25,310 nt of DNA from a virus, in IMG/VR virus record IMGVR_UViG_3300000970_000007, positions 1 to 25,310 of that record. One strand, given 5' to 3'. The position numbers and the translations under genes were made by a program. Shown in pieces: positions 1 through 19,802 of this stretch; position 1 is the first letter of the stretch, and every line of letters starts with the position of its first letter. A model generated the notes under the pieces. It did no database searches and had not been told where the DNA came from. It worked only from the letters and a program-made list of their open reading frames with translations.

Positions 1-49
1 ATTCCCACTACTAGCGTTTTTAGAGTTATCCCCACTACTAGCGTTTTTA
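1..49. repeat. 27-bp coding tandem repeat (9-aa unit NASSGDNSK)
   Basis: CCCACTACTAGCGTTTTTA at 4-22 and 31-49; truncated by the window edge. Confidence 0.85.
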
Positions 50-822
50 AGAAGCCTTTGTATACCTATGTCTAAAAGAGCCATGTCTATTTTTATAAAG
101 CCTTTTTCATCTAACATATCTAACTTATTCAGTAAAGATAAATCAAAAAATAAATTATTGTCTTTAGTTATTAATTCAGAAGATATTGGTAAATAACCTT
201 TATATTGTAGTTTTAAAGTATTTTCACTTAACTCTTCCTTAAATTCTTTAATGTTAAAATAACCTAAATTTTTCATTTCGTTATCTGAAACATTCATCCC
301 TAAATACTCTAGAAATTCTACAACATACTTTATATATTTAGGACTAATACTACCATTACCTTTTCCCTTTATCTGTTGATTTTTTTCAATTGTGCAATGA
401 GGTTTGTTTTTAGAATCTCTTAAAGAATATATTTCTTTATCGTTGTAGTTACCTCCTCCTACACAATGATTCATCAGTTTCCCCTCTCTCTTAAAAGAGT
501 TAGAAGAAATTAACTTAACCCACCTAAATCCATTGTCTTGCTCTAAAACAACTTCAGTATCTCCTTCAACTTCTTCGTCTACTTTAACTTTACTAAGTTT
601 TATTAACCATTTTTTAGAACCTCCCAATGCTTGTTTATAAGAAACTCTTTGTAACTTCTTTGGAGCAGAATCAGAAGTTAAGAAATCCAAAATATGCTCT
701 ATATCATTCTGATTTTCTGTGTTTTTAGAAAGATAATTAGTTAGATTCTTATCAATCCATTCTGTAACTTGTTCAACGTTATTGCATTGAAAGTTGTTTA
801 TGTAATCTATATACTTTTTCAT
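1..822 (-). CDS. PcfJ-like domain protein with C-terminal NASSG repeats (runs off left edge)
   Basis: Not in ORF track. Hand translation from ATG at 822 (MKKYIDYINNF...) is open to position 1. Contains REGKLMNHCVG...IYSLRD...PHCTIE...QIKGKGN, the PcfJ-like motif set, and ends KNASSGDNSKNASSGN. Confidence 0.75.
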   Translation of the reverse strand, partial: MKKYIDYINNFQCNNVEQVTEWIDKNLTNYLSKNTENQNDIEHILDFLTSDSAPKKLQRVSYKQALGGSKKWLIKLSKVKVDEEVEGDTEVVLEQDNGFRWVKLISSNSFKREGKLMNHCVGGGNYNDKEIYSLRDSKNKPHCTIEKNQQIKGKGNGSISPKYIKYVVEFLEYLGMNVSDNEMKNLGYFNIKEFKEELSENTLKLQYKGYLPISSELITKDNNLFFDLSLLNKLDMLDEKGFIKIDMALLDIGIQRLLKNASSGDNSKNASSGN

Positions 823-1498: not shown

Positions 1499-1633
1499 GG
1501 CATATAACAACGTGTATAGCCTATTGCTACTTACTGCTATTTCAAAGGTTTGTTATTATTAATTTATTTTGTTTTTAATTCGATACTTTTTGTCTGTTTA
1601 CACGCAACATACCATACACAAAACGTTATGCAC
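1499..1633 (+). repeat. attC-like site A
   Basis: GGCATATAAC-AAC-GTGTATAG..TTGC ... GCAA..CCATACAC-AAAAC-GTTATGCAC: imperfect palindrome with AAC and GTT cores. Confidence 0.8.
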
Positions 1634-2219
1634 AACCTATCGACAACCACGTTTTACTGCAATATTTAATTTGATGATAACAGTCGGCTAATGCATTATG
1701 AGCTGTTCCGTTAAATTCTAGTTGTTTTTTGATTTCAGGTTTAAAACTTACTAAGGTTCTAACACACCTCTCTTTTCTAAAATCCCACGGTATATTAAAA
1801 TGAGTTTGAGCGTATGCATCTGCCATTATACCTAAATCAAAACTAGCTGAATTACCCCATATTTGATATTCTTTAGAGCAGAACTTACCGAAATCTAATA
1901 AAGCTTGTTTTATTGAAACAGGTTCTTCTTTGGTAAGGCTTTTACGAGCTTCATCGCTTTGTGACATCCACCACATAACAGTACTAGCATCTATATTTAA
2001 ACCTAAATCAACAGAAGACTTTAAAGATATGTTTCGATAGAACTCTCGACCTGTGTTTCCTGTATTAATATCGAACTCAACAGCACCAATACTTATTATA
2101 GCTGAATTAGACTTAGTTCCCATTGTTTCAATATCTACCATTAAGTGAGAAAATGGTGTGTGCATAACACGTTGTATAGCGCATTGCTTAGTTTCTGTAT
2201 TTTTATTTTCTGTATTCAT
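1626..2219 (-). CDS. 3'-5' exo(ribo)nuclease, DEDDh / Rv2179c-like
   Basis: Motifs HLMVDIETMG, WGNSASFD and HNALADCYHQ. Confidence 0.85.
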   Translation of the reverse strand: MNTENKNTETKQCAIQRVMHTPFSHLMVDIETMGTKSNSAIISIGAVEFDINTGNTGREFYRNISLKSSVDLGLNIDASTVMWWMSQSDEARKSLTKEEPVSIKQALLDFGKFCSKEYQIWGNSASFDLGIMADAYAQTHFNIPWDFRKERCVRTLVSFKPEIKKQLEFNGTAHNALADCYHQIKYCSKTWLSIGCA

Positions 2220-2297
2220 AATTTGAAAGTTGTTTAATATTTATTAAGTTCGTGCTGTAAGGTCGCAACGTCACCATACAAGTAGCCGTTATATGCC
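2159..2297 (+). repeat. attC-like site B
   Basis: TGTGCATAAC-ACG-TTGTATAG..TTGC ... GCAA..CCATACAA-GTAGCC-GTTATATGCC. Confidence 0.8.
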
Positions 2298-2528
2298 ATA
2301 ATCCTCAATTCCGAAGGTTATTCGCTGTTCAAAATCTTCTTGCACTATGCTTTCTATATTCTCAATCTTTTCCTCGTGAGTAAGTTCATTCCATTCTTCC
2401 TCGCCCATTAAATCGTTTTCAACGTCAATCACTGTTCGTTGTGGTCTGCTTTTACCCGCATAACCATCTTCTACCTCCCATACTACTGTTATTTTTTCCA
2501 TCTTATTAAAATTTACGGCATATAACAC
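2289..2528 (-). CDS. small acidic hypothetical protein (cassette cargo)
   Basis: 79-aa ORF bounded by sites B and C. The real start may be the internal MEKITV; motif WEVEDGYAGKSRPQ. Confidence 0.75.
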   Translation of the reverse strand: MLYAVNFNKMEKITVVWEVEDGYAGKSRPQRTVIDVENDLMGEEEWNELTHEEKIENIESIVQEDFEQRITFGIEDYGI

Positions 2529-2617
2529 AGTATATAGTGTATATCCTTGTTAAACATTTGGTCTTTAGCCGAAAGTTAGTGGTGTCGGCTACACACCATA
2601 CACAAACCGTTATCTAC
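2517..2617 (+). repeat. attC-like site C
   Basis: GGCATATAAC-ACA-GTATATAGTGTA ... TACACACCATACAC-AAACC-GTTATCTAC. Confidence 0.8.
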
Positions 2618-2907
2618 AATTCAGAAGCACCTACCTTTTCCATTAAGGTTAGTAGTTCTTCTTTGTAGTGTTGCTCATTCTCATAAATTTCTTCGTGAGT
2701 TATTTTACCTTGTGCGAACATTTCTTTGCACATTTTAAACCCGAGTAAAACACCTTCTATTCTTGATATTTCAATTATTTCTTCAACTGATTTTGGGTAA
2801 ATAACATCTACTCCCCAAGTGTCTTGGTGCTTTACTCTTTCGTAATATTCGTTTGCTTTTGACATAATAAATTTATTTAGTGAAGTGGAATGAACAGTAG
2901 ATAACAC
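2614..2907 (-). CDS. hypothetical protein (cassette cargo)
   Basis: 97-aa ORF bounded by sites C and D; the real start is probably the internal MSKANE. Confidence 0.75.
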   Translation of the reverse strand: MLSTVHSTSLNKFIMSKANEYYERVKHQDTWGVDVIYPKSVEEIIEISRIEGVLLGFKMCKEMFAQGKITHEEIYENEQHYKEELLTLMEKVGASEL

Positions 2908-2962
2908 GGTATATGACGTAACTCCACTTCGTTACGCTACGCATATACAAAACGTTGTGCTT
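2897..2962 (+). repeat. attC-like site D (short, 66 bp)
   Basis: GTAGATAAC-ACG-GTATATG-A-CGTAAC-TCCACTTC-GTTACG-CTACG-CATATAC-AAAAC-GTTGTGCTT: a clean hairpin of classical 59-base-element size. Confidence 0.85.
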
Positions 2963-2973
2963 CATTAAAACGA

Positions 2974-3237
2974 AAGCACTACATGGTATATAAAACATAC
3001 ACTCACTAAAAAGGTAGGTACTGAATATAGTACCTCAATCTTTGCCTAAATCCCCAAGTAATTTTGTGGGTTATCGTGTAAATTCCAAGCCATCCATGCT
3101 CTATACTAATCCACTTTTGTTCTTTATTAAATCTAATTTTCATAATTTAAATTTTATTAGTTTAAGTACTAAGCCTATTAACACCTCTACGTCAGCTTTT
3201 AATCGTTAGCCGAACGCATATATTAACCGTTAGCTAC
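2974..3237 (+). repeat. attC-like site E (long, left core mutated)
   Basis: Left arm AAGCACTAC-ATG-GTATATAAAAC and right arm GCATATAT-TAACC-GTTAGCTAC. Confidence 0.6.
3006..3143 (-). CDS. small hypothetical protein inside site E (45 aa)
   Basis: Hand translation MKIRFNKEQKWISIEHGWLG...YIQYLPF*, preceded by AAATTATG like other genes in the window. Confidence 0.45.
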   Translation of the reverse strand: MKIRFNKEQKWISIEHGWLGIYTITHKITWGFRQRLRYYIQYLPF

Positions 3238-3469
3238 AATAAGCTAAACTGCCGTTTCACCTCTTTCCAATACTTATGATTCAGCCTATCGCTATCATAG
3301 ATATTAGGCTTGTCATTTAGTATTTCATCTACGCAAATAATAGCAAAGGCTTTAATCCATTAATGAGCATCCATTACTCCTAAATGTAGTTTATATCTAA
3401 TATCTTCACTAGCTTCAATTCTTTGAATTAATCCTCCTTTAATTTCTATTCTTACTGTTTCCGTAACAT
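3234..3469 (-). pseudogene. chimeric pseudogene
   Basis: Frame reads ETVRIEIKGGLIQRIEAS-EDIRYKLHLGVMDAH*WIKAFA-IICVDEIL...YWKEVKRQFSLL*. Internal TAA at 3360-3362; the ATG at 3469 is out of frame. Confidence 0.7.
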
Positions 3470-3666
3470 TATTTTTCTATTAGATGTAAAACTTTTTCTA
3501 ACCAAACATCTCTATTCATATCTATTTTTAATTCTACATAAACATTTAGTTCCACAATTCTAAGTATTTGTTCAGAATTATAATTTCTTTCTTTCAAGTA
3601 TTTTATTGTATTGTCAAACTTAATACTATTCTCTTTAAAATACTCTTCTACTGAATTATTCTTCAT
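3469..3666 (-). CDS. hypothetical protein
   Basis: 65-aa ORF in a packed co-oriented run. Confidence 0.7.
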   Translation of the reverse strand: MKNNSVEEYFKENSIKFDNTIKYLKERNYNSEQILRIVELNVYVELKIDMNRDVWLEKVLHLIEK

Positions 3667-7801: not shown

Positions 7802-7826
7802 ATTTATTAGTTTGTAGTAAATATTT

Positions 7827-7901
7827 TCAAATATTCACTTTATAATTTGGTTTCTTTTTAAATTGCCAAATCAAAGTGTAAGTTATTGATATTGTGTCCA
7901 T
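7827..7901 (-). pseudogene. truncated paralogue of ORF 1093-1317
   Basis: MDTISITYTLIWQFKKKPNYKVNI* versus MDTISITYTLIWQFKRFPNYKVTK... Confidence 0.8.
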
Positions 7902-8011
7902 TGTATGGCTACTACAAAGAACACCCTAACAGTTACCAACAACACATATAAAACATTAAATAGCATTGTCTTTTTAAATGGTTTACCGTTTATTTCTAAA
8001 TTTAATTTCAT
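7883..8011 (-). CDS. small hydrophobic ORF starting inside site F (42 aa)
   Basis: MKLNLEINGKPFKKTMLFNVLYVLLVTVRVFFVVAIQWTQYQ*. Confidence 0.35.
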   Translation of the reverse strand: MKLNLEINGKPFKKTMLFNVLYVLLVTVRVFFVVAIQWTQYQ

Positions 8012-8068
8012 ATTTATTAATTTAAGTTATTATTCGTTTAACGTTTCATATCTGTAATCCGTTAATAC
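7932..8068 (+). repeat. attC-like site F (orphan)
   Basis: GTTACCAAC-AAC-ACATATAAAACATTAAA ... TTTAACGTTTCATATCTGT-AATCC-GTTAATAC. Confidence 0.65.
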
Positions 8069-8114
8069 TACCTTCATGATTTTTTAATAAGGTAGTCGAT
8101 ATAACCGATAATAT

Positions 8115-8711
8115 TTACTTTGTTAATTCTTCAAAGTTTGTTATTGTTATGTAGGTTTCTATATCTAAATAACTTTCATCTATTTCTTCATTTTCAGCAA
8201 TGAAGTTTAAAATAGAACCCAATTTATGTTTATGCTCTAAAGGTTCATCCCTCATAAATTCTGTAACACCATAATCATAAGATGATATAAACCCCTCTCT
8301 TGACTTATAATTTTCTTTTAAGTACTCCATAAATTGAATTTCATTATTTAGTAAATAGCTTATAATAGCTTCTTTTTTTGGTACTATAATACAATCAATA
8401 CTATCATTAGTATAATTATAATATTTTGGACTAACTAACTTTTCAAATGCAATACTTTCTACATAATCTGACAAATGCTTTTCAACTTGTTCTACTATTT
8501 CAATAGAAGTTTCTTTAAAATATGTTTCATAATCAACCTTTAAATCATCATAATCAACTTCTTTTAATCCTTTATCTTCTCTTAATTCATTTATATAATT
8601 AAGTTCAGACTTTTCTTTCCAATCACTATCGAAGTAAGGATTATTATAAAATCCAGTGAATATCGGTAAGAAAGTTTTTACTTTAGTTTGTGTAGGCGTA
8701 CTAGTTTTCAT
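8115..8711 (-). CDS. acidic hypothetical phage protein
   Basis: 198-aa ORF with LPIFTGFY and FEKLVSPKYYNYTNDSI motifs. Confidence 0.85.
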   Translation of the reverse strand: MKTSTPTQTKVKTFLPIFTGFYNNPYFDSDWKEKSELNYINELREDKGLKEVDYDDLKVDYETYFKETSIEIVEQVEKHLSDYVESIAFEKLVSPKYYNYTNDSIDCIIVPKKEAIISYLLNNEIQFMEYLKENYKSREGFISSYDYGVTEFMRDEPLEHKHKLGSILNFIAENEEIDESYLDIETYITITNFEELTK

Positions 8712-9172: not shown

Positions 9173-9286
9173 TTAGTACATTGACTTATTACAATTACAG
9201 TTAACACAAATAGAATCGTATTTACTTTTAACATAACCTTTACACTTAAAAGGCTTCTTAATAACAGGTTTCTTAATCTTAGTCAT
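9173..9286 (-). CDS. possible 37-aa Cys/Lys-rich peptide
   Basis: MTKIKKPVIKKPFKCKGYVKSKYDSICVNCNCNKSMY*. Confidence 0.4.
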   Translation of the reverse strand: MTKIKKPVIKKPFKCKGYVKSKYDSICVNCNCNKSMY

Positions 9287-9346
9287 AGTATTATAGTTTA
9301 TAGATTAGTTCAAAGGTAAATACAAACGTTGGATTAAAGGTATTTG

Positions 9347-9440
9347 AAAATTTACAGTTTTATTTTTTGATAAAGGTTAATATTGGTGGTAAGTTAAAAA
9401 TTTACAGTTTTATTAATTTTAAAAGGTAAATAATGGTGGT
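9347..9440. repeat. imperfect tandem repeat with 50-bp period
   Basis: AAAATTTACAGTTTTATT at 9347 and 9397; AAAGGTWAATAWTGGTGGT at 9372 and 9422. Confidence 0.85.
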
Positions 9441-9584
9441 GGTGTAATTTCCAAAAATTCTAATTAACCCACCAAACCCCTATTAACCTTACCTTTCAGA
9501 TACTTTTCAACCAGCTTTTAACTATCTTTCAGCTAAATAAAATACCTTACCACCTCTCTTATTTACCCTTTATAGCTTTATTCT

Positions 9585-9770
9585 TTAGAGTTTTTTAAAA
9601 GCTATGACGTTTGATGTTATTCCCTTAGGTTGTTTGTCTTTTAGTCTTTGTATTCTTATTCTTGGGCTTACTACTTCTGTTTTAAAAGAATGTTGATTTA
9701 GGCTTCTTTTATTATCATTTATTTTAGTTATCCACAATGGAGTTTTAGCCGCTTTTTTTGAATTTTGCAT
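9585..9770 (-). CDS. small basic hypothetical protein
   Basis: 61-aa ORF with an AT-rich leader, inside a repeat-rich region. Confidence 0.55.
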   Translation of the reverse strand: MQNSKKAAKTPLWITKINDNKRSLNQHSFKTEVVSPRIRIQRLKDKQPKGITSNVIAFKKL

Positions 9771-9831
9771 AATATTATAGTGTTTTTAGGGTATAGTTAA
9801 CCCTTTTTAGTTAAATTTTAGTTTTTGTAAG

Positions 9832-10079
9832 TACTTGATTATCAAGTAAAGTTGTTATGTTTTACACGGTGCAGACTAAACTACATATTTTAGTAGTTCA
9901 GAATATAGTTAACCCCCTACAAAGCCCATTTTACCGTTCAAATTGATATTTTACCACCAACAAATTAACTTATACCCTATTAAAAGGCTCTATTTAGGTT
10001 GAAAATATGCAATTTTAGGGTATTTTGTTAAGTTTTGATAATCAATAAGTTAGTTTAAGTTCTACACGGTGCAGACTAA
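9832..10079. repeat. two composite repeats exactly 200 bp apart
   Basis: Palindrome TTGATWATCAA centred at 9840 and 10040; TACACGGTGCAGACTAA at 9863 and 10063. Confidence 0.9.
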
Positions 10080-10165
10080 CTTTTCTTAGCTTATATAAGT
10101 GAGGTTAAAATAAGAGCAATTTAATTGAGCAAATCCCACTCTAAATTAAATTAACCCTTGACACT

Positions 10166-10318
10166 TTAGTATTTATTTGTTAGAAAGGTTAATATTTTGG
10201 AGGTGGAATTAGATTTTATTCCCTTGTTACCTTTTATAGCGTAATAGTAACTACCTATCGAATTGACTTTATATCCTAATGCTTCTATTTGTTGTATTAC
10301 TGTTTGTGCGTTGTTCAT
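10166..10318 (-). CDS. small hypothetical protein (50 aa)
   Basis: Hand translation MNNAQTVIQQIEALGYKV...FLTNKY*, immediately after the stop of 10320-10739. Confidence 0.55.
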   Translation of the reverse strand: MNNAQTVIQQIEALGYKVNSIGSYYYAIKGNKGIKSNSTSKILTFLTNKY

Positions 10319-10319
10319 C

Positions 10320-10739
10320 TTAAAGGTCGTTTAAATCTGTTTGTATTGCTTCTCTCAATTCGTTTAATGTTTCTAGGCTCATTAAATTATCCCAGTCTTT
10401 ATCTAGTATAGTATAATAGTTGCTCAATATTTCTTCGCCTAGAATATAGATGTACATATTTAAAACCTTTTCGGAACTACTAAAATCGGTGTTTACTTCT
10501 CCAAAGTTATCGTTTTCGTATTCCTTAATGGTTTCAATAGCATTAAAGATACCTCCACCACTATTAATTAGCCATTGCTCACATTGATAATAGCCTATTA
10601 AATAATAACCGCTATTGAATAGTAAATTGTGTAAATCACAACCATACACAGAATCGCTTTGCACCTCTTGAAGTTGGTCTAATGTATGTTGTAGTAATTC
10701 TTTTTTTGTTTCTGTTGTTAAATTGTTATCTAAAGTCAT
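10320..10739 (-). CDS. acidic phage early protein
   Basis: Likely start MTLDNN (ATG at 10739); motif DLHNLLFNSGYYLIGYYQCEQWL...EYENDNFGE...EKVLNMYIYILGEEIL. Confidence 0.8.
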   Translation of the reverse strand: MTLDNNLTTETKKELLQHTLDQLQEVQSDSVYGCDLHNLLFNSGYYLIGYYQCEQWLINSGGGIFNAIETIKEYENDNFGEVNTDFSSSEKVLNMYIYILGEEILSNYYTILDKDWDNLMSLETLNELREAIQTDLNDL

Positions 10740-10841
10740 ATTTCTAATTTTTAAAGGTTTACCACCTACCAAGATTAACCGCTTTGATTAATATGGTAAA
10801 TGGTTTTAAGTGGTCGAATAAATTAAAATTTACTCTTCTTG

Positions 10842-10902
10842 TGGCAAATAAGAGGTTCGAACTCTCCACTCCTATTATTTCAGAATGCTACCTAGTTTGC
10901 CA
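10842..10902 (-). ncRNA. tRNA-like mini element (acceptor stem and T-arm, no D-arm)
   Basis: Minus strand TGGCAAA...GAGAG-TTCGAAC-CTCTT-ATTTGCCA; only 28 nt between the acceptor 5' strand and the T-arm. Confidence 0.5.
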
Positions 10903-10909
10903 AAATAAA

Positions 10910-10945
10910 AAAGTGCCTACCGTAAATAAATACAATAGGCACTTT
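10910..10945 (-). terminator. hairpin followed by a U-tract (terminator or processing site)
   Basis: AAAGTGCCTA / TAGGCACTTT 10-bp stem with an adjacent A-run on the + strand. Confidence 0.55.
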
Positions 10946-11259
10946 AGTAATGTTTATTCTATCCGCTTCTTTCAACTATAAAGATAGATACTTATAGTTA
11001 TGTTTCAGAACTTAATTCTTTAGGCGATTAAGTTCCTTTTTATTGTGCCTTTTGTCTCCACAAACATTGACAATTTTTAGATGGTTTTTTAGTTGTTTCC
11101 TAACTAATGCTATTTTAATCCAATTTGCTAACTTATAGTTAGTCTTTCAAAGAACGCATTTACACTATCCTTTATTATTTGCGTGTTTTCGCTCAATACT
11201 TTAGGCTTTGCGACCCTTTTTTAGTGTTGGTACACTTTTGTAACTCTTTTGCTACACTT

Positions 11260-11291
11260 CAAAGGTAAGAATTATATTTGAATAATCCAAA
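11260..11291 (-). promoter_or_regulatory. Bacteroidota primary-sigma promoter
   Basis: Minus strand TTTG-N20-TACCTTTG, matching the -33/-7 consensus. Confidence 0.75.
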
Positions 11292-11338
11292 TCTTTTTTT
11301 TTGCTTTATTTTAGAACCGTTGTTCTAATTGCTTTATG

Positions 11339-11370
11339 TAAAGATAAGAATGTTTTTTGTTTATTCCTAA
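11339..11370 (-). promoter_or_regulatory. promoter variant
   Basis: Minus strand TTAG-N20-TATCTTTA; shares the ATTCTTA context with the 11260 promoter. Confidence 0.6.
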
Positions 11371-11428
11371 TAATTACCAATATTTATTTTTAAACTGCCT
11401 TTCACTAAAGGACTTGTTTTTGTTACTA

Positions 11429-11460
11429 TAAAGATAAGAATAATAGTTGAATAAATCTAA
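11429..11460 (-). promoter_or_regulatory. promoter variant
   Basis: Minus strand TTAG-N20-TATCTTTA. Confidence 0.6.
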
Positions 11461-11726
11461 TTTTTAAAGCTTAATTTTCGTTTTTTATCATTTAATCCAC
11501 CTATCTATATCGACCGTATGAATTATACTAAACTTACTAATAAAGAGCCACCTAAATAATTTAACTAATTTAATAGTATTAAAAAGGCTATTATCTCAAT
11601 TATTAATCGTTACCTCTGTAACACATTGTAAAGATAAGCATAATTTTTAAATAAAAAAGTAAAAAACTAAATTAATTTAAAATATTTCTGTTATCTAATG
11701 GTTGACGTTTCAACCTTACAACAATA

Positions 11727-11757
11727 CAAATATAAGTATAAATAAACGAACTACAAA
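11727..11757 (-). promoter_or_regulatory. Bacteroidota primary-sigma promoter
   Basis: Minus strand TTTG-N19-TATATTTG. Confidence 0.7.
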
Positions 11758-12012
11758 CAAATTGGCTATTATTTTTAAAAAAATTACTATTAAAACTATT
11801 AAGCTATTTAAAGCTATTATATAGATTATAACAAGTTAAGTGGTACAAAGATATAGATTAATAGTTTAGGTGGCTTAGATGTAATATAAATAAGGTTAAA
11901 GTAAGTATCACTAAGTTAATAAGGTAGTAACAAGTAATAACAAAAATAATAATCCCTAAAAGTTTTTGAAAAACTAAACCAAGTTGTAAAAAAATAAAAG
12001 GTAAGTTTTAAA

Positions 12013-12133
12013 TAGGGGGTAGTATATGGAAAACCTATTGAGAGGGGGAAGTGGAAATGTAGTACCCCCTACCCACTCACCCGATTGACCTTTTTTTGAC
12101 CTTTTTGAGTATTGACCACTCACCCGATTGACC
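12013..12133. repeat. GC-rich inverted and direct repeat cluster
   Basis: TAGGGGGTA (12013) and TACCCCCTA (12063) are inverted; CCACTCACCCGATTGACC is a direct repeat at 12073 and 12116. Confidence 0.85.
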
Positions 12134-12148
12134 AATTTTCAAAATAAA

Positions 12149-12310
12149 CTATTTCCACTTGTCTTTTTTTAAAATATTATCTTTAGCCCACAGAGGTTGT
12201 AAATTACATAAAGCATTGCATATATTAGGTGGTGTACCTTCCTTAAAAGCTGATAATGGTTTAATACCGTCTATATACCAATAACCATATTTTTCATATG
12301 TAAGAACCTT
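12149..12310 (-). pseudogene. degenerate HNH endonuclease C-terminal fragment
   Basis: KVLTYEKYGYWYIDGIKPLSAF...NALCNLQPLWAKDNILKKDKWK*, matching the WHIDHIKP...NLQPLWAxDN family pattern with His residues lost and no in-frame start. Confidence 0.7.
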
Positions 12311-12473
12311 TCATTAAAGATATTATTTGTTCTTCACCGTTTAATTTATAAGATACTGTTATATAACCATTGTGTATCTTTAGGACTTCTCCATGAAAAG
12401 CGTGTGTTATAGGTTGTTCTCCAATAACGTCAAGTTTCTTAATTTCAAAGTATACTCTTTTTCCTATGTACAT
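12294..12473 (-). CDS. small hypothetical protein (59 aa)
   Basis: Hand translation MYIGKRVYFEIKKLDV...LMKGSYI*. Confidence 0.55.
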   Translation of the reverse strand: MYIGKRVYFEIKKLDVIGEQPITHAFHGEVLKIHNGYITVSYKLNGEEQIISLMKGSYI

Positions 12474-12648
12474 ATGTTTTCTTATTAGTAGGGTTTATCA
12501 TTATTTTTATTCAATTGAGTTTATGCCGCTATTTATAATCTTGGTCTTTTATCCCACCTTACACAATGTACCTATCGCAGTAATCGCACCAGGAATTTTT
12601 CTTTCATAGTCAACTAAGATTAATTAACCAATCCTATCTAAATTAAAC

Positions 12649-12891
12649 TTACATTTTTAAATAAAGGTTCTTCAACATTGTTTGAAGAGATAACTCTTGG
12701 TTGAACTGTTGAAAGCTTTCTTCTATTTCATCTATTTTTATAACAAAAGGATTGTTGTTTATTTTTATTATTGTTTCTCCCTGTAAGTTTTGTTTTATAG
12801 TAGATCCTAGTCTTATTAATAGGTCATATTGACTCTGATTGATAGTTATTACTTTATGAGGACTTCTCTTTGATTCTAAAATGTATTTCAT
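12649..12891 (-). CDS. hypothetical protein
   Basis: 80-aa ORF in a co-oriented run. Confidence 0.7.
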   Translation of the reverse strand: MKYILESKRSPHKVITINQSQYDLLIRLGSTIKQNLQGETIIKINNNPFVIKIDEIEESFQQFNQELSLQTMLKNLYLKM

Positions 12892-19729: not shown

Positions 19730-19802
19730 AGTAGGTAGTCAGATTCGAACTGACGATAACGGTTTTGCAGACCGTCCCCTTAGACCACTTGGGTATACCT
19801 AC
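19730..19802 (-). tRNA. tRNA-Cys(GCA)
   Basis: Acceptor GTAGGTA/TACCTAC, D-arm CCCAAGTGGTCTAAGGG, anticodon arm ACGGT-CTGCAAA-ACCGT, T-arm GTCAG-TTCGAAT-CTGAC and U discriminator; CCA is not encoded. Confidence 0.95.

Follow-up and report, generated by a model that had tools for sequence, protein, structure and literature searches.

A phage array of gene cassettes whose genes lie antisense to their attC-like sites

The stretch of DNA analysed here, referred to as the window, comprises the first 25,310 bases of the 121,014-base virus record IMGVR_UViG_3300000970_000007 (IMG/VR; ~80% complete), and carries near its left end an array of attC-like sites interleaved with small genes. Three of its gene cassettes are intact, a fourth is empty, and a truncated cassette lies at either end; the genes are antisense to the sites (Table 1). 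The terminase-like protein of the record is closest to those of Cellulophaga phages phi17:2 and phi4:1 and of crAss-like phages (35–36%), from which we infer that the host of the phage belongs to the Bacteroidota. All cargo open reading frames (ORFs) in the array are on the minus strand. Because nearly all genes in window 1–23000 are on that strand (38 minus ORFs outside the array versus 3 plus ORFs), this orientation alone is unremarkable; the unusual feature is that the sites point the opposite way to the genes.

Left arms of the form TAACA-N2-GTRTATA lie at 1505, 2165, 2523, and 2902, and right arms with a CGTT end lie at 1613, 2597, 2942, and 3217, all on the plus strand. The right-arm pattern has 5 matches versus 0.18 expected by chance, and the left-arm pattern has 6 versus 1.24; the right arm of site B (GTT at 2288) has a longer spacer and was found separately from the pattern count. 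The right spacer is longer than the left, giving a stem offset of +2 in sites A, C, and D and +3 in site B, in agreement with the polarity proposed in a preliminary description of this DNA, namely TAACA...CGTT with the shorter spacer on the left. The extra base that the same description placed in the left arm did not hold up. Specifically, the best alignments contain no bulge in A and C, a right-arm bulge in B, and a left-arm bulge in D alone, and the position is usually an A·C mismatch (stem position 10 in the window sites). Comparison of the nine bases from each GTT with the nine ending at the next AAC shows reverse complementarity between the right core of a site and the left core of the site that follows (9/9 for A–B, B–C, and C–D; 8/9 for D–E). 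The cores have the classical arrangement, with inverted RYYYAAC and GTTRRRY around an imperfect palindrome; the purine–pyrimidine pattern after GTT is loose, and the pairing is near perfect. With four sites on one strand within 1.5 kilobases (kb) and no PF00589 domain in the record, the array has the layout of a cluster of attC sites lacking integrase (CALIN), which calls for at least two same-strand sites within 4 kb and no integrase in the vicinity. A further cassette, with a site F and an antisense ORF of 87 amino acids (aa), is located at 120,547–120,954 of the record (L335:1547-1954), ~70 base pairs (bp) from its far end, and may adjoin the window start across an assembly gap. A candidate site of opposite polarity at 8040–8125 was judged on inspection to be a chance match.

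The right cores provide the ends of several genes. The TAA codons at 1626 and 2289 lie inside GTTA, where none of the 38 other minus-strand ORFs of window 1–23000 stops, and TAG at 2614 likewise belongs to a right core; the fourth stop originally assigned to a core, TAG at 3234, ends a frame that is broken by an upstream TAA. The c3 ORF stops two residues beyond the stop of its homologue, and 80%-identical homologues are present without sites in L309 and L310. Both of these start at the level of ATG 2865, and the 20 nucleotides (nt) before this ATG are conserved in L309, a non-cassette homologue, while all five viral homologues of the c2 gene are ordinary genes without a site that start at the level of ATG 2501. 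The two ORFs likely start at ATG 2501, not GTG 2528, and at ATG 2865, not GTG 2907, and the sequences MLYAV and MLSTV, once read as site-derived N-termini, are in-frame GTG extensions that are probably untranslated. The non-cassette c3 homologue at L309:1960-2260 (80% aa identity) has GTTA 35 nt before its start and TAAC just after its stop, and no arms. At the outer ends of the array, the best upstream GTT match to the core expected for c0 is only 7/10 and far away, and the broken gene of c5 is fused to a partial duplicate of the gene at 833–1081. Empty cassette bodies of 28–29 bp resembling that of c4 occur in L050 and L051; in these as in c4, two cores surround CATTAAAACG. This motif also forms the loop of the shortest sites, and similar CATT/AATT and AC ends border both the gene bodies and the long loops; this arrangement may mark where DNA inserts when cassettes are made.

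Table 1. Features of the cassette array and its surroundings (window coordinates)
Feature	Coordinates	Strand	Description
c0 ORF, 57 aa	1299..1472	-	Truncated left-end cassette; 5′ partner core missing; end runs into next gene
Site A	1500..1627	+	Left core GCATATAAC at 1500-1508; right GTT at 1625; stem of 16 bp, interrupted but free of bulges
Cassette c1	1625..2287	+	GTT to base before next GTT; exonuclease and site B; cores 9/9
Exonuclease, 197 aa	1626..2219	-	3′-5′ exonuclease, PF16473, phrog_255; stop TAA inside GTTA core
Site B	2160..2290	+	Long-loop type carrying minus-strand translation start
Cassette c2	2288..2608	+	Small ORF and site C; cores 9/9; found by chained detector (see text)
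c2 ORF, 70 aa (MEKITVVWEV...)	2289..2501	-	Weak phrog_7018 match; stop TAA in core
Site C	2518..2611	+	Member of four-site array; no bulge
Cassette c3	2609..2953	+	Small ORF and site D; cores 9/9
c3 ORF, 83 aa (MSKANEYY...)	2614..2865	-	Stop TAG overlapping, supplied by core
Site D	2897..2956	+	Short type; sole window site with left-arm bulge
Cassette c4	2954..3228	+	Gene-less 29-bp body (2954-2982), then degenerate or composite site E
45-aa ORF	3006-3143	-	In loop of site E; stops inside loop
c5 remnant	3229..3362	-	Core GTTAGCTAC and 3′ part of broken gene; own site absent
D1 local duplication	950-1034 / 3324-3408		Right copy has premature stop, fused to c5 remnant
D2 local duplication	1240-1320 / 7824-7904		D1 and D2 flank the array
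tRNA gene	19730-19802	-	Rfam RF00005

The boundaries and polarity of such units are visible in natural variants of related phages. A blastn search of cultured phages returned 13 records, nine of which are isolates of the Polaribacter phage Freya carrying a site 77% identical to site B; in Freya, this site starts an unrelated ORF with a similar leader. Seven Freya records, one per distinct length, were compared. Their backbones have 0–4 mismatches over 42.9 kb, and the isolates differ by units of 842, 902, 472, 3198, and 307 bp, exactly GTT to GTT. Every unit has its initial GTT at a single position, ~50 bp ahead of the gene for a 271-aa recombinase, and a right arm at its other end; one pair differs also by an internal 902-bp unit. 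The unit genes are antisense and point in the direction of the recombinase, the site occupies the recombinase-distal end, and the 842-bp unit ends in a site-B-like site. In a chromosomal array (G005), duplicated cassettes are also bounded GTT to GTT with the same site polarity and with sense genes, and the cassette that directly follows the recombinase is 100% identical to another at a distance of 107 kb. Crossover at GTT and an attI-distal site are thereby seen in relatives of the window array, with the exact bond within GTT lying below the resolution of both the Freya indels and the G005 duplicates. An attI-like site is seen beside the recombinase in Freya and other phage loci; at L249:4098-4240, the right half of the Freya attI-like site has a possible partner arm in the 5′ end of the recombinase gene. 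The earlier assignment of the plus strand as top strand, with ORFs antisense, agrees with the Freya junctions, which are natural rather than the product of a strand assay, and the opposite polarity is contradicted by them; the ORFs therefore appear not to be conventionally oriented.

Orientation was tabulated in phage and chromosomal arrays. Scored and chained detectors, controlled by shuffles, were used in place of a generic one that had produced false pairs in AT-rich DNA; the chained detector demanded paired arms and a core match to the previous site. It found 408 cassettes, 383 after duplicate removal, and none in shuffles of the three sets that were shuffled. The exact 16-base right-arm pattern is estimated to occur in 230 viral and 1300 genomic stretches, the listed genomic ones being largely from Bacteroidota, and a left arm is present upstream in 69 of 129 viral right-arm matches. 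The 149 viral chained cassettes (43 loci) comprise 129 antisense, 10 sense, and 10 without ORF, while the 234 chromosomal ones (24 loci) comprise 203 sense, 27 antisense, and 4 without ORF; the 10 viral sense and 27 chromosomal antisense cases, kept in these counts, are by eye mostly shadow frames in gene-less units. By locus, the majority is antisense in 40 of 43 viral loci and sense in 19 of 24 chromosomal loci, and all three chained cassettes of the window are antisense. A stricter site-only count gave agreeing orientations. In an independent sample picked by recombinase (20 of 32 matches, from a phylum-wide set), chained cassettes were present at 7 of 20 chromosomal loci, with 25 sense, 3 antisense, and 3 without ORF. 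The layout with the ORF in sense and the attC at its 3′ end is that of the chromosomal arrays and not of the phage cassettes, supporting the proposal that the latter form a distinct phage-associated class. In the suggestion that this class suits leftward phage transcription, ‘leftward’ reflects the orientation of the contig alone.

The two classes share their core rules and differ in cargo. Core positions 5–9 match within a cassette in 92% of viral and 97% of chromosomal cases versus 32% of shuffled pairings. In viral cargo, 21 of 112 scanned genes match PHROGs, 8 of them as DNA methyltransferases; in chromosomal cargo, 14 of 100 scanned genes (of 203) do so, none best as a DNA methyltransferase. 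Origin of the phage cassettes by simple inversion of host cassette bodies was considered and rejected, as phage and chromosomal cassettes do not differ in the polarity of their asymmetric flanks (an A at 5′-end position 11, with C at the corresponding 3′ position) and the two cargo sets share one blastp pair, at 28%. One Bacteroidota genome holds a chained array of ~100 cassettes. Repeated gene-less cassette families of ~370 bp and ~430 bp are present within the chromosomal arrays of L281-L287 (G005) and L191.

The exonuclease of cassette c1 illustrates how a site can supply the start of a gene. Its ATG at 2219 is positioned in the loop of site B, and residues ~11–20 (QCAIQRV-MH) are the translated left arm and core, confirming what the preliminary description had read there. 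A second ATG, at 2165 in the core, is a possible alternative start, and both candidate starts lie inside site B. The same cores flank a 73%-identical exonuclease gene in phage contigs L297 and L298, among other neighbours. In these contigs (~2900-3600), the exonuclease cassette carries a different site subtype with a stem offset of +4; because the same cassette and cores carry another subtype, exchange of site interiors is suggested. Among 112 scored exonuclease homologues (120 listed, 8 without the anchor motif left out), 6 have a 23–26-aa leader of the VMH type and several others lead through other cores, while the rest have a median leader of 9 aa.

Gene ends of this kind recur in the phage class. 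Among the 129 viral antisense genes, 38 stop at the TAA of GTTA and 26 at a conserved AATT just inside. In 80 long viral sites, a loop ATG is open into the gene in 43/80 main frames versus 17/160 other frames, and 29 of 39 such loop starts read GTT as valine, producing a Q-x-x-I-x-x-V leader in unrelated proteins. The idea that the translated arm could serve as a marker proved sound: 14 of 17 matches to the peptide among 2230 viral ORFs lie on a site, and unrelated proteins share it, while the same pattern has 1 match among 1396 chromosomal ORFs, with no site there; the pattern was derived from overlapping data, making these counts optimistic. Judging from these frames, long-loop sites are likely portable translation starts, and the cores often supply the stop. 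For annotation, Q-C-x-I-x-x-V leaders and MLYAV-type starts in Bacteroidota phage proteins would represent read-through of these sites.

The bottom strand folds better than the top strand in 121 of 129 sites from viruses and in 200 of 203 from chromosomes. Mismatches on the viral top strand are A·C or C·A in 277 cases versus G·T or T·G in 29, and top-strand A·C mismatches become G·T wobbles on the bottom strand. Phage genes have this strand as coding strand, chromosomal genes as template, so the folding bias follows the DNA, not the transcript. With their own cores restored, as in the circular-junction form, the bottom strands of sites C and D fold with z of −4.5 and −5.3. A left-arm bulge at positions 8–11 is present in 8/146 viral sites, 41/195 chromosomal sites, and 1/4 window sites, versus 3/3 class 1 controls. 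Identity with classical attC sites is thus not upheld, as the conserved extrahelical base is absent and the spacer offset is different; nor is the associated recombinase an IntI. A sigma-70 scan and a scan for a Bacteroidetes −7 motif gave no enrichment in the window or on the gene strand of the sites; promoter and terminator motifs showed no excess in window scans, which located no Pc-type (cassette) promoter.

The recombinase associated with these arrays carries PF13495 and PF00589. It scores 96.5 bits against the integron integrase model TIGR02249 (cut-off 265), and its best NCBIfam model is NF040815, at 146 bits, below the cut-off of 220; the best PDB sequence match is XerA-like (archaeal XerA). 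The two catalytic motifs are separated by 59–67 residues, versus 106 in IntI1, in all 37 family rows with both motifs, and the enzyme is ~44 aa shorter than VchIntI4 across the stretch of the IntI insertion, indicating that the IntI-specific insertion is lacking. Sites free of extrahelical bases would fit an enzyme free of this insertion. A tree of 46 rows, prepared by first removing ten that were redundant, partial, or distant, unites 14 of 15 viral enzymes in one clade (100/98); IntI1 falls on the family's side of the split from XerC/D, on a branch that is long and uncertainly placed. Of the 81 Bacteroidota genomes sampled, 28 encode a related recombinase, and XerC/D-like proteins that are distinct from it and more distant occur in those host genomes that were checked; among the 40 matches listed in a plasmid search, related recombinases are present and IntI1 is absent. 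On chromosomes, the array either follows the enzyme gene, the enzyme then being mostly of the longer kind, or is divergent and upstream where the enzyme measures 273–306 aa. At 10 of 15 viral enzyme loci, the upstream sites have opposite polarity, and at 0 of 15 do they have the same polarity; three of the other five had <400 bases upstream.

Much of this is reminiscent of classical integrons, which share the RYYYAAC...GTTRRRY cores, crossover at the right-core GTT, the attI-distal site, insertion beside the recombinase gene, core pairing over 9–11 nt (PMC2727003), the better-folding bottom strand, empty cassettes, and chromosomal arrays of ~100 cassettes. Classical integrons differ from the phage class in having the IntI insertion and a conserved first extrahelical base in L″, a base that directs strand choice (PMC2727003), and in a stem offset of 0 to +1, versus +2 to +4 here; in the phage cassettes, furthermore, the genes are antisense, point at the recombinase, and often start inside the site. 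Bottom-strand choice is described as ensuring the orientation for Pc (PMC8946536). The system would work like an integron, but falls outside the group on three tests of membership (extrahelical base, IntI insertion, and ORF orientation). CALINs described in lytic phages (PMC9892861) are likewise attC-like clusters without integrase, often with DNA methyltransferases, but in its accessible text that study describes neither an antisense cargo class nor a non-IntI recombinase. One of its phages, P12002L, has a site, attC1, with the arms and loop of the window's site family and the same polarity relative to its genes as here; all six detected sites of P12002L are on the plus strand and its genes on the minus strand. 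Of six sites in that study, attC1 is reported as the sole one without a verified IntI1 recombinant. In P12002L (L251:29,236-30,066), the gp35 methyltransferase gene lies between perfectly matching cores, and what was published as attC2 appears to correspond to the gp35 cassette's 5′ core, seen from the opposite strand. In the Treponema-group inverted-integrase integrons (PMC4889954), as in many chromosomal members here, a recombinase upstream of the array is co-oriented with it; in that group it is the integrase that is flipped, whereas the phage class keeps the usual integrase orientation, away from the top strand, and has its genes turned round with respect to the sites. The XerA-like or NF040815 ‘integron-like’ recombinases (PMC8138268) include subgroup members without the full insertion; the enzymes associated here differ in being found next to cassette arrays, at attI-like sites. 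A literature search that covered few subscription papers or preprint supplements returned no account of phage cassettes with antisense genes, nor of the associated recombinase as a cassette enzyme.

Taken together, the cores, junctions, and orientations make it likely that the window array is an orphan fragment of a phage-adapted integron-like system, on which an Xer-like recombinase lacking the IntI insertion is predicted to act. The recombinase neighbouring an array would be the putative catalyst, recombining the folded bottom strand at GTT. Sequence comparison shows units that extend from one GTT up to the base preceding the next, each with its site at the recombinase-distal end. Within phage loci, the gene for the recombinase is downstream of the array on the gene strand, and units are gained or lost at a fixed site just before it, while Bacteroidota chromosomes combine the same sites with sense genes. 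Phage transcription running towards the recombinase would read cassettes in the reversed layout, which most simply reflects expression by phage transcription through the array. A site at the 5′ end of a gene could, through its long loop, act as a portable translation start, and the cargo likely derives from phage genes. To move, the window array would need a recombinase from the host, another phage, or an unassembled part of the genome. More tentatively, and with somewhat less than even confidence, Bacteroidota and their phages may run a second, hitherto unrecognised kind of integron, with an insertion-free recombinase acting on single-stranded hairpins without an extrahelical code, in which the phages have their own enzyme clade and assemble mirror-image cassettes out of phage genes, the sites also serving as portable translation starts.

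Other readings of the array were weighed against this one. Were the site polarity reversed, the array would be a classical IntI integron with its ORFs in the usual sense orientation; owing to core symmetry, the window on its own fits either polarity, and the extrahelical base invoked in the preliminary description is not conserved. This reading is nonetheless very improbable, since Freya units include the site at the gene 5′ end and break at the right-core GTT, the exonuclease starts inside site B, the chromosomal duplicates combine the same site polarity with sense genes, and the P12002L relative gave no verified IntI1 recombinant in the published account (PMC9892861). The repeats might instead be elements or transcription signals between genes, not cassette borders, and miniature inverted-repeat transposable elements shared by Bacteroidota and their viruses have been reported (PMC11602168). 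Such an origin is scarcely credible here: the complementarity connects the two ends of a gene unit by spanning the gene rather than the repeat, the Freya GTT-to-GTT indels add or remove a gene together with its site, and neither an Rfam match nor a motif excess was obtained. Double-stranded Xer-like recombination at GTT half sites, or by-products of prophage integration and excision, with hairpins that are incidental or act as RNA, is improbable. It would accord with the archaeal XerA proteins as nearest structural relatives by sequence, with the missing IntI insertion, with the weak folding of the window sites as integrated, and with the Freya paper (PMC8776804), which reads the recombinase as a marker of temperate lifestyle and whose main text, as accessible, does not contain ‘integron’ or ‘cassette’. 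However, partners share GTT alone, too little for classical double-strand exchange by tyrosine-recombinase chemistry (PMC2727003), the shared bottom-strand bias argues against an RNA role, and the Freya units are antisense, unlike host cassettes.

A further possibility is that the system is real elsewhere and the window array is a dead relic, kept for its genes, with the leader tolerated and not functional. We regard this as unlikely, though it deserves more weight than the preceding readings and is compatible at the system level with an orphan fragment of a phage-adapted integron-like system. A tyrosine recombinase or PF00589 domain was not found in the 121-kb, ~80% complete record by family search or tblastn, and an attI-like site was not found at either end of the window array; both ends are truncated, without partner cores, site E is degenerate or composite (left core CTAC, arms unpaired), and the second core ATG could start the exonuclease. 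Against a relic stand three consecutive cassettes with 9/9 cores, a leader that is open and of similar length through different arm sequences, the intact cassette at the other end of the record, and the frequency of related recombinases in the sampled Bacteroidota genomes. The missing recombinase and attI-like site, the truncated ends, and the degenerate site E also weigh against the reading as an orphan fragment of such a system, as do several other points. In their integrated form, sites A and B do not surpass shuffles in folding (bottom-strand z of +1.4 and +0.1), the minimum-energy fold of site A is not the site stem, and the circular form of site B reaches a z of only −1.6. The loci in the orientation counts were chosen by a window-derived pattern or by a profile seeded on the phage enzyme, and G005 contributes 104 of the 234 chromosomal cassettes. 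The exonuclease gene and the site type are not permanently linked, as the other subtype in L297 and L298 indicates. The Freya units could be mostly losses from a larger ancestor (the 472-bp unit alone is absent from the longest isolate), and the L309 locus could be a decayed cassette instead of a precursor. A rearranged junction was not seen in the contigs of three runs, which represent a single low-depth sample and perhaps the source. The IntI insertion, finally, is described as essential for integron function (PMC8138268).

Few integrons have been reported in Bacteroidetes (IntegronFinder 2.0), yet the recombinase family is present in over a third of the sampled genomes (28/81), one genome holding the ~100-cassette array. 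Were the broader reading of a second integron kind true, the cassettes of hosts and phages would form pools that are compatible chemically yet mutually silent, and pairs of near-identical cassette and non-cassette genes would expose cassette making. Freya on Polaribacter provides a cultured phage–host pair with natural cassette variants, in which hairpin recombination without an IntI insertion and extrahelical bases, the shuffling of accessory genes by phages with an enzyme of their own, and cassette creation are testable questions.

Within the record, the local duplications D1 and D2 abut the array ends, which lack partner cores, and this suggests that the array likely arrived as a block; searches through backbone genes found no empty-site relatives. 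Rfam detected only a tRNA in the window, with no match to a Flavo-1-type RNA. A 22-bp tandem repeat at window 1–60 lies inside a truncated PcfJ-like ORF and is possibly an assembly-end effect. Short direct repeats (D5, D7, D11, D16, and D17) are located in the ORF-poor stretch at window 9283–12656 and are possibly early promoters or an origin.

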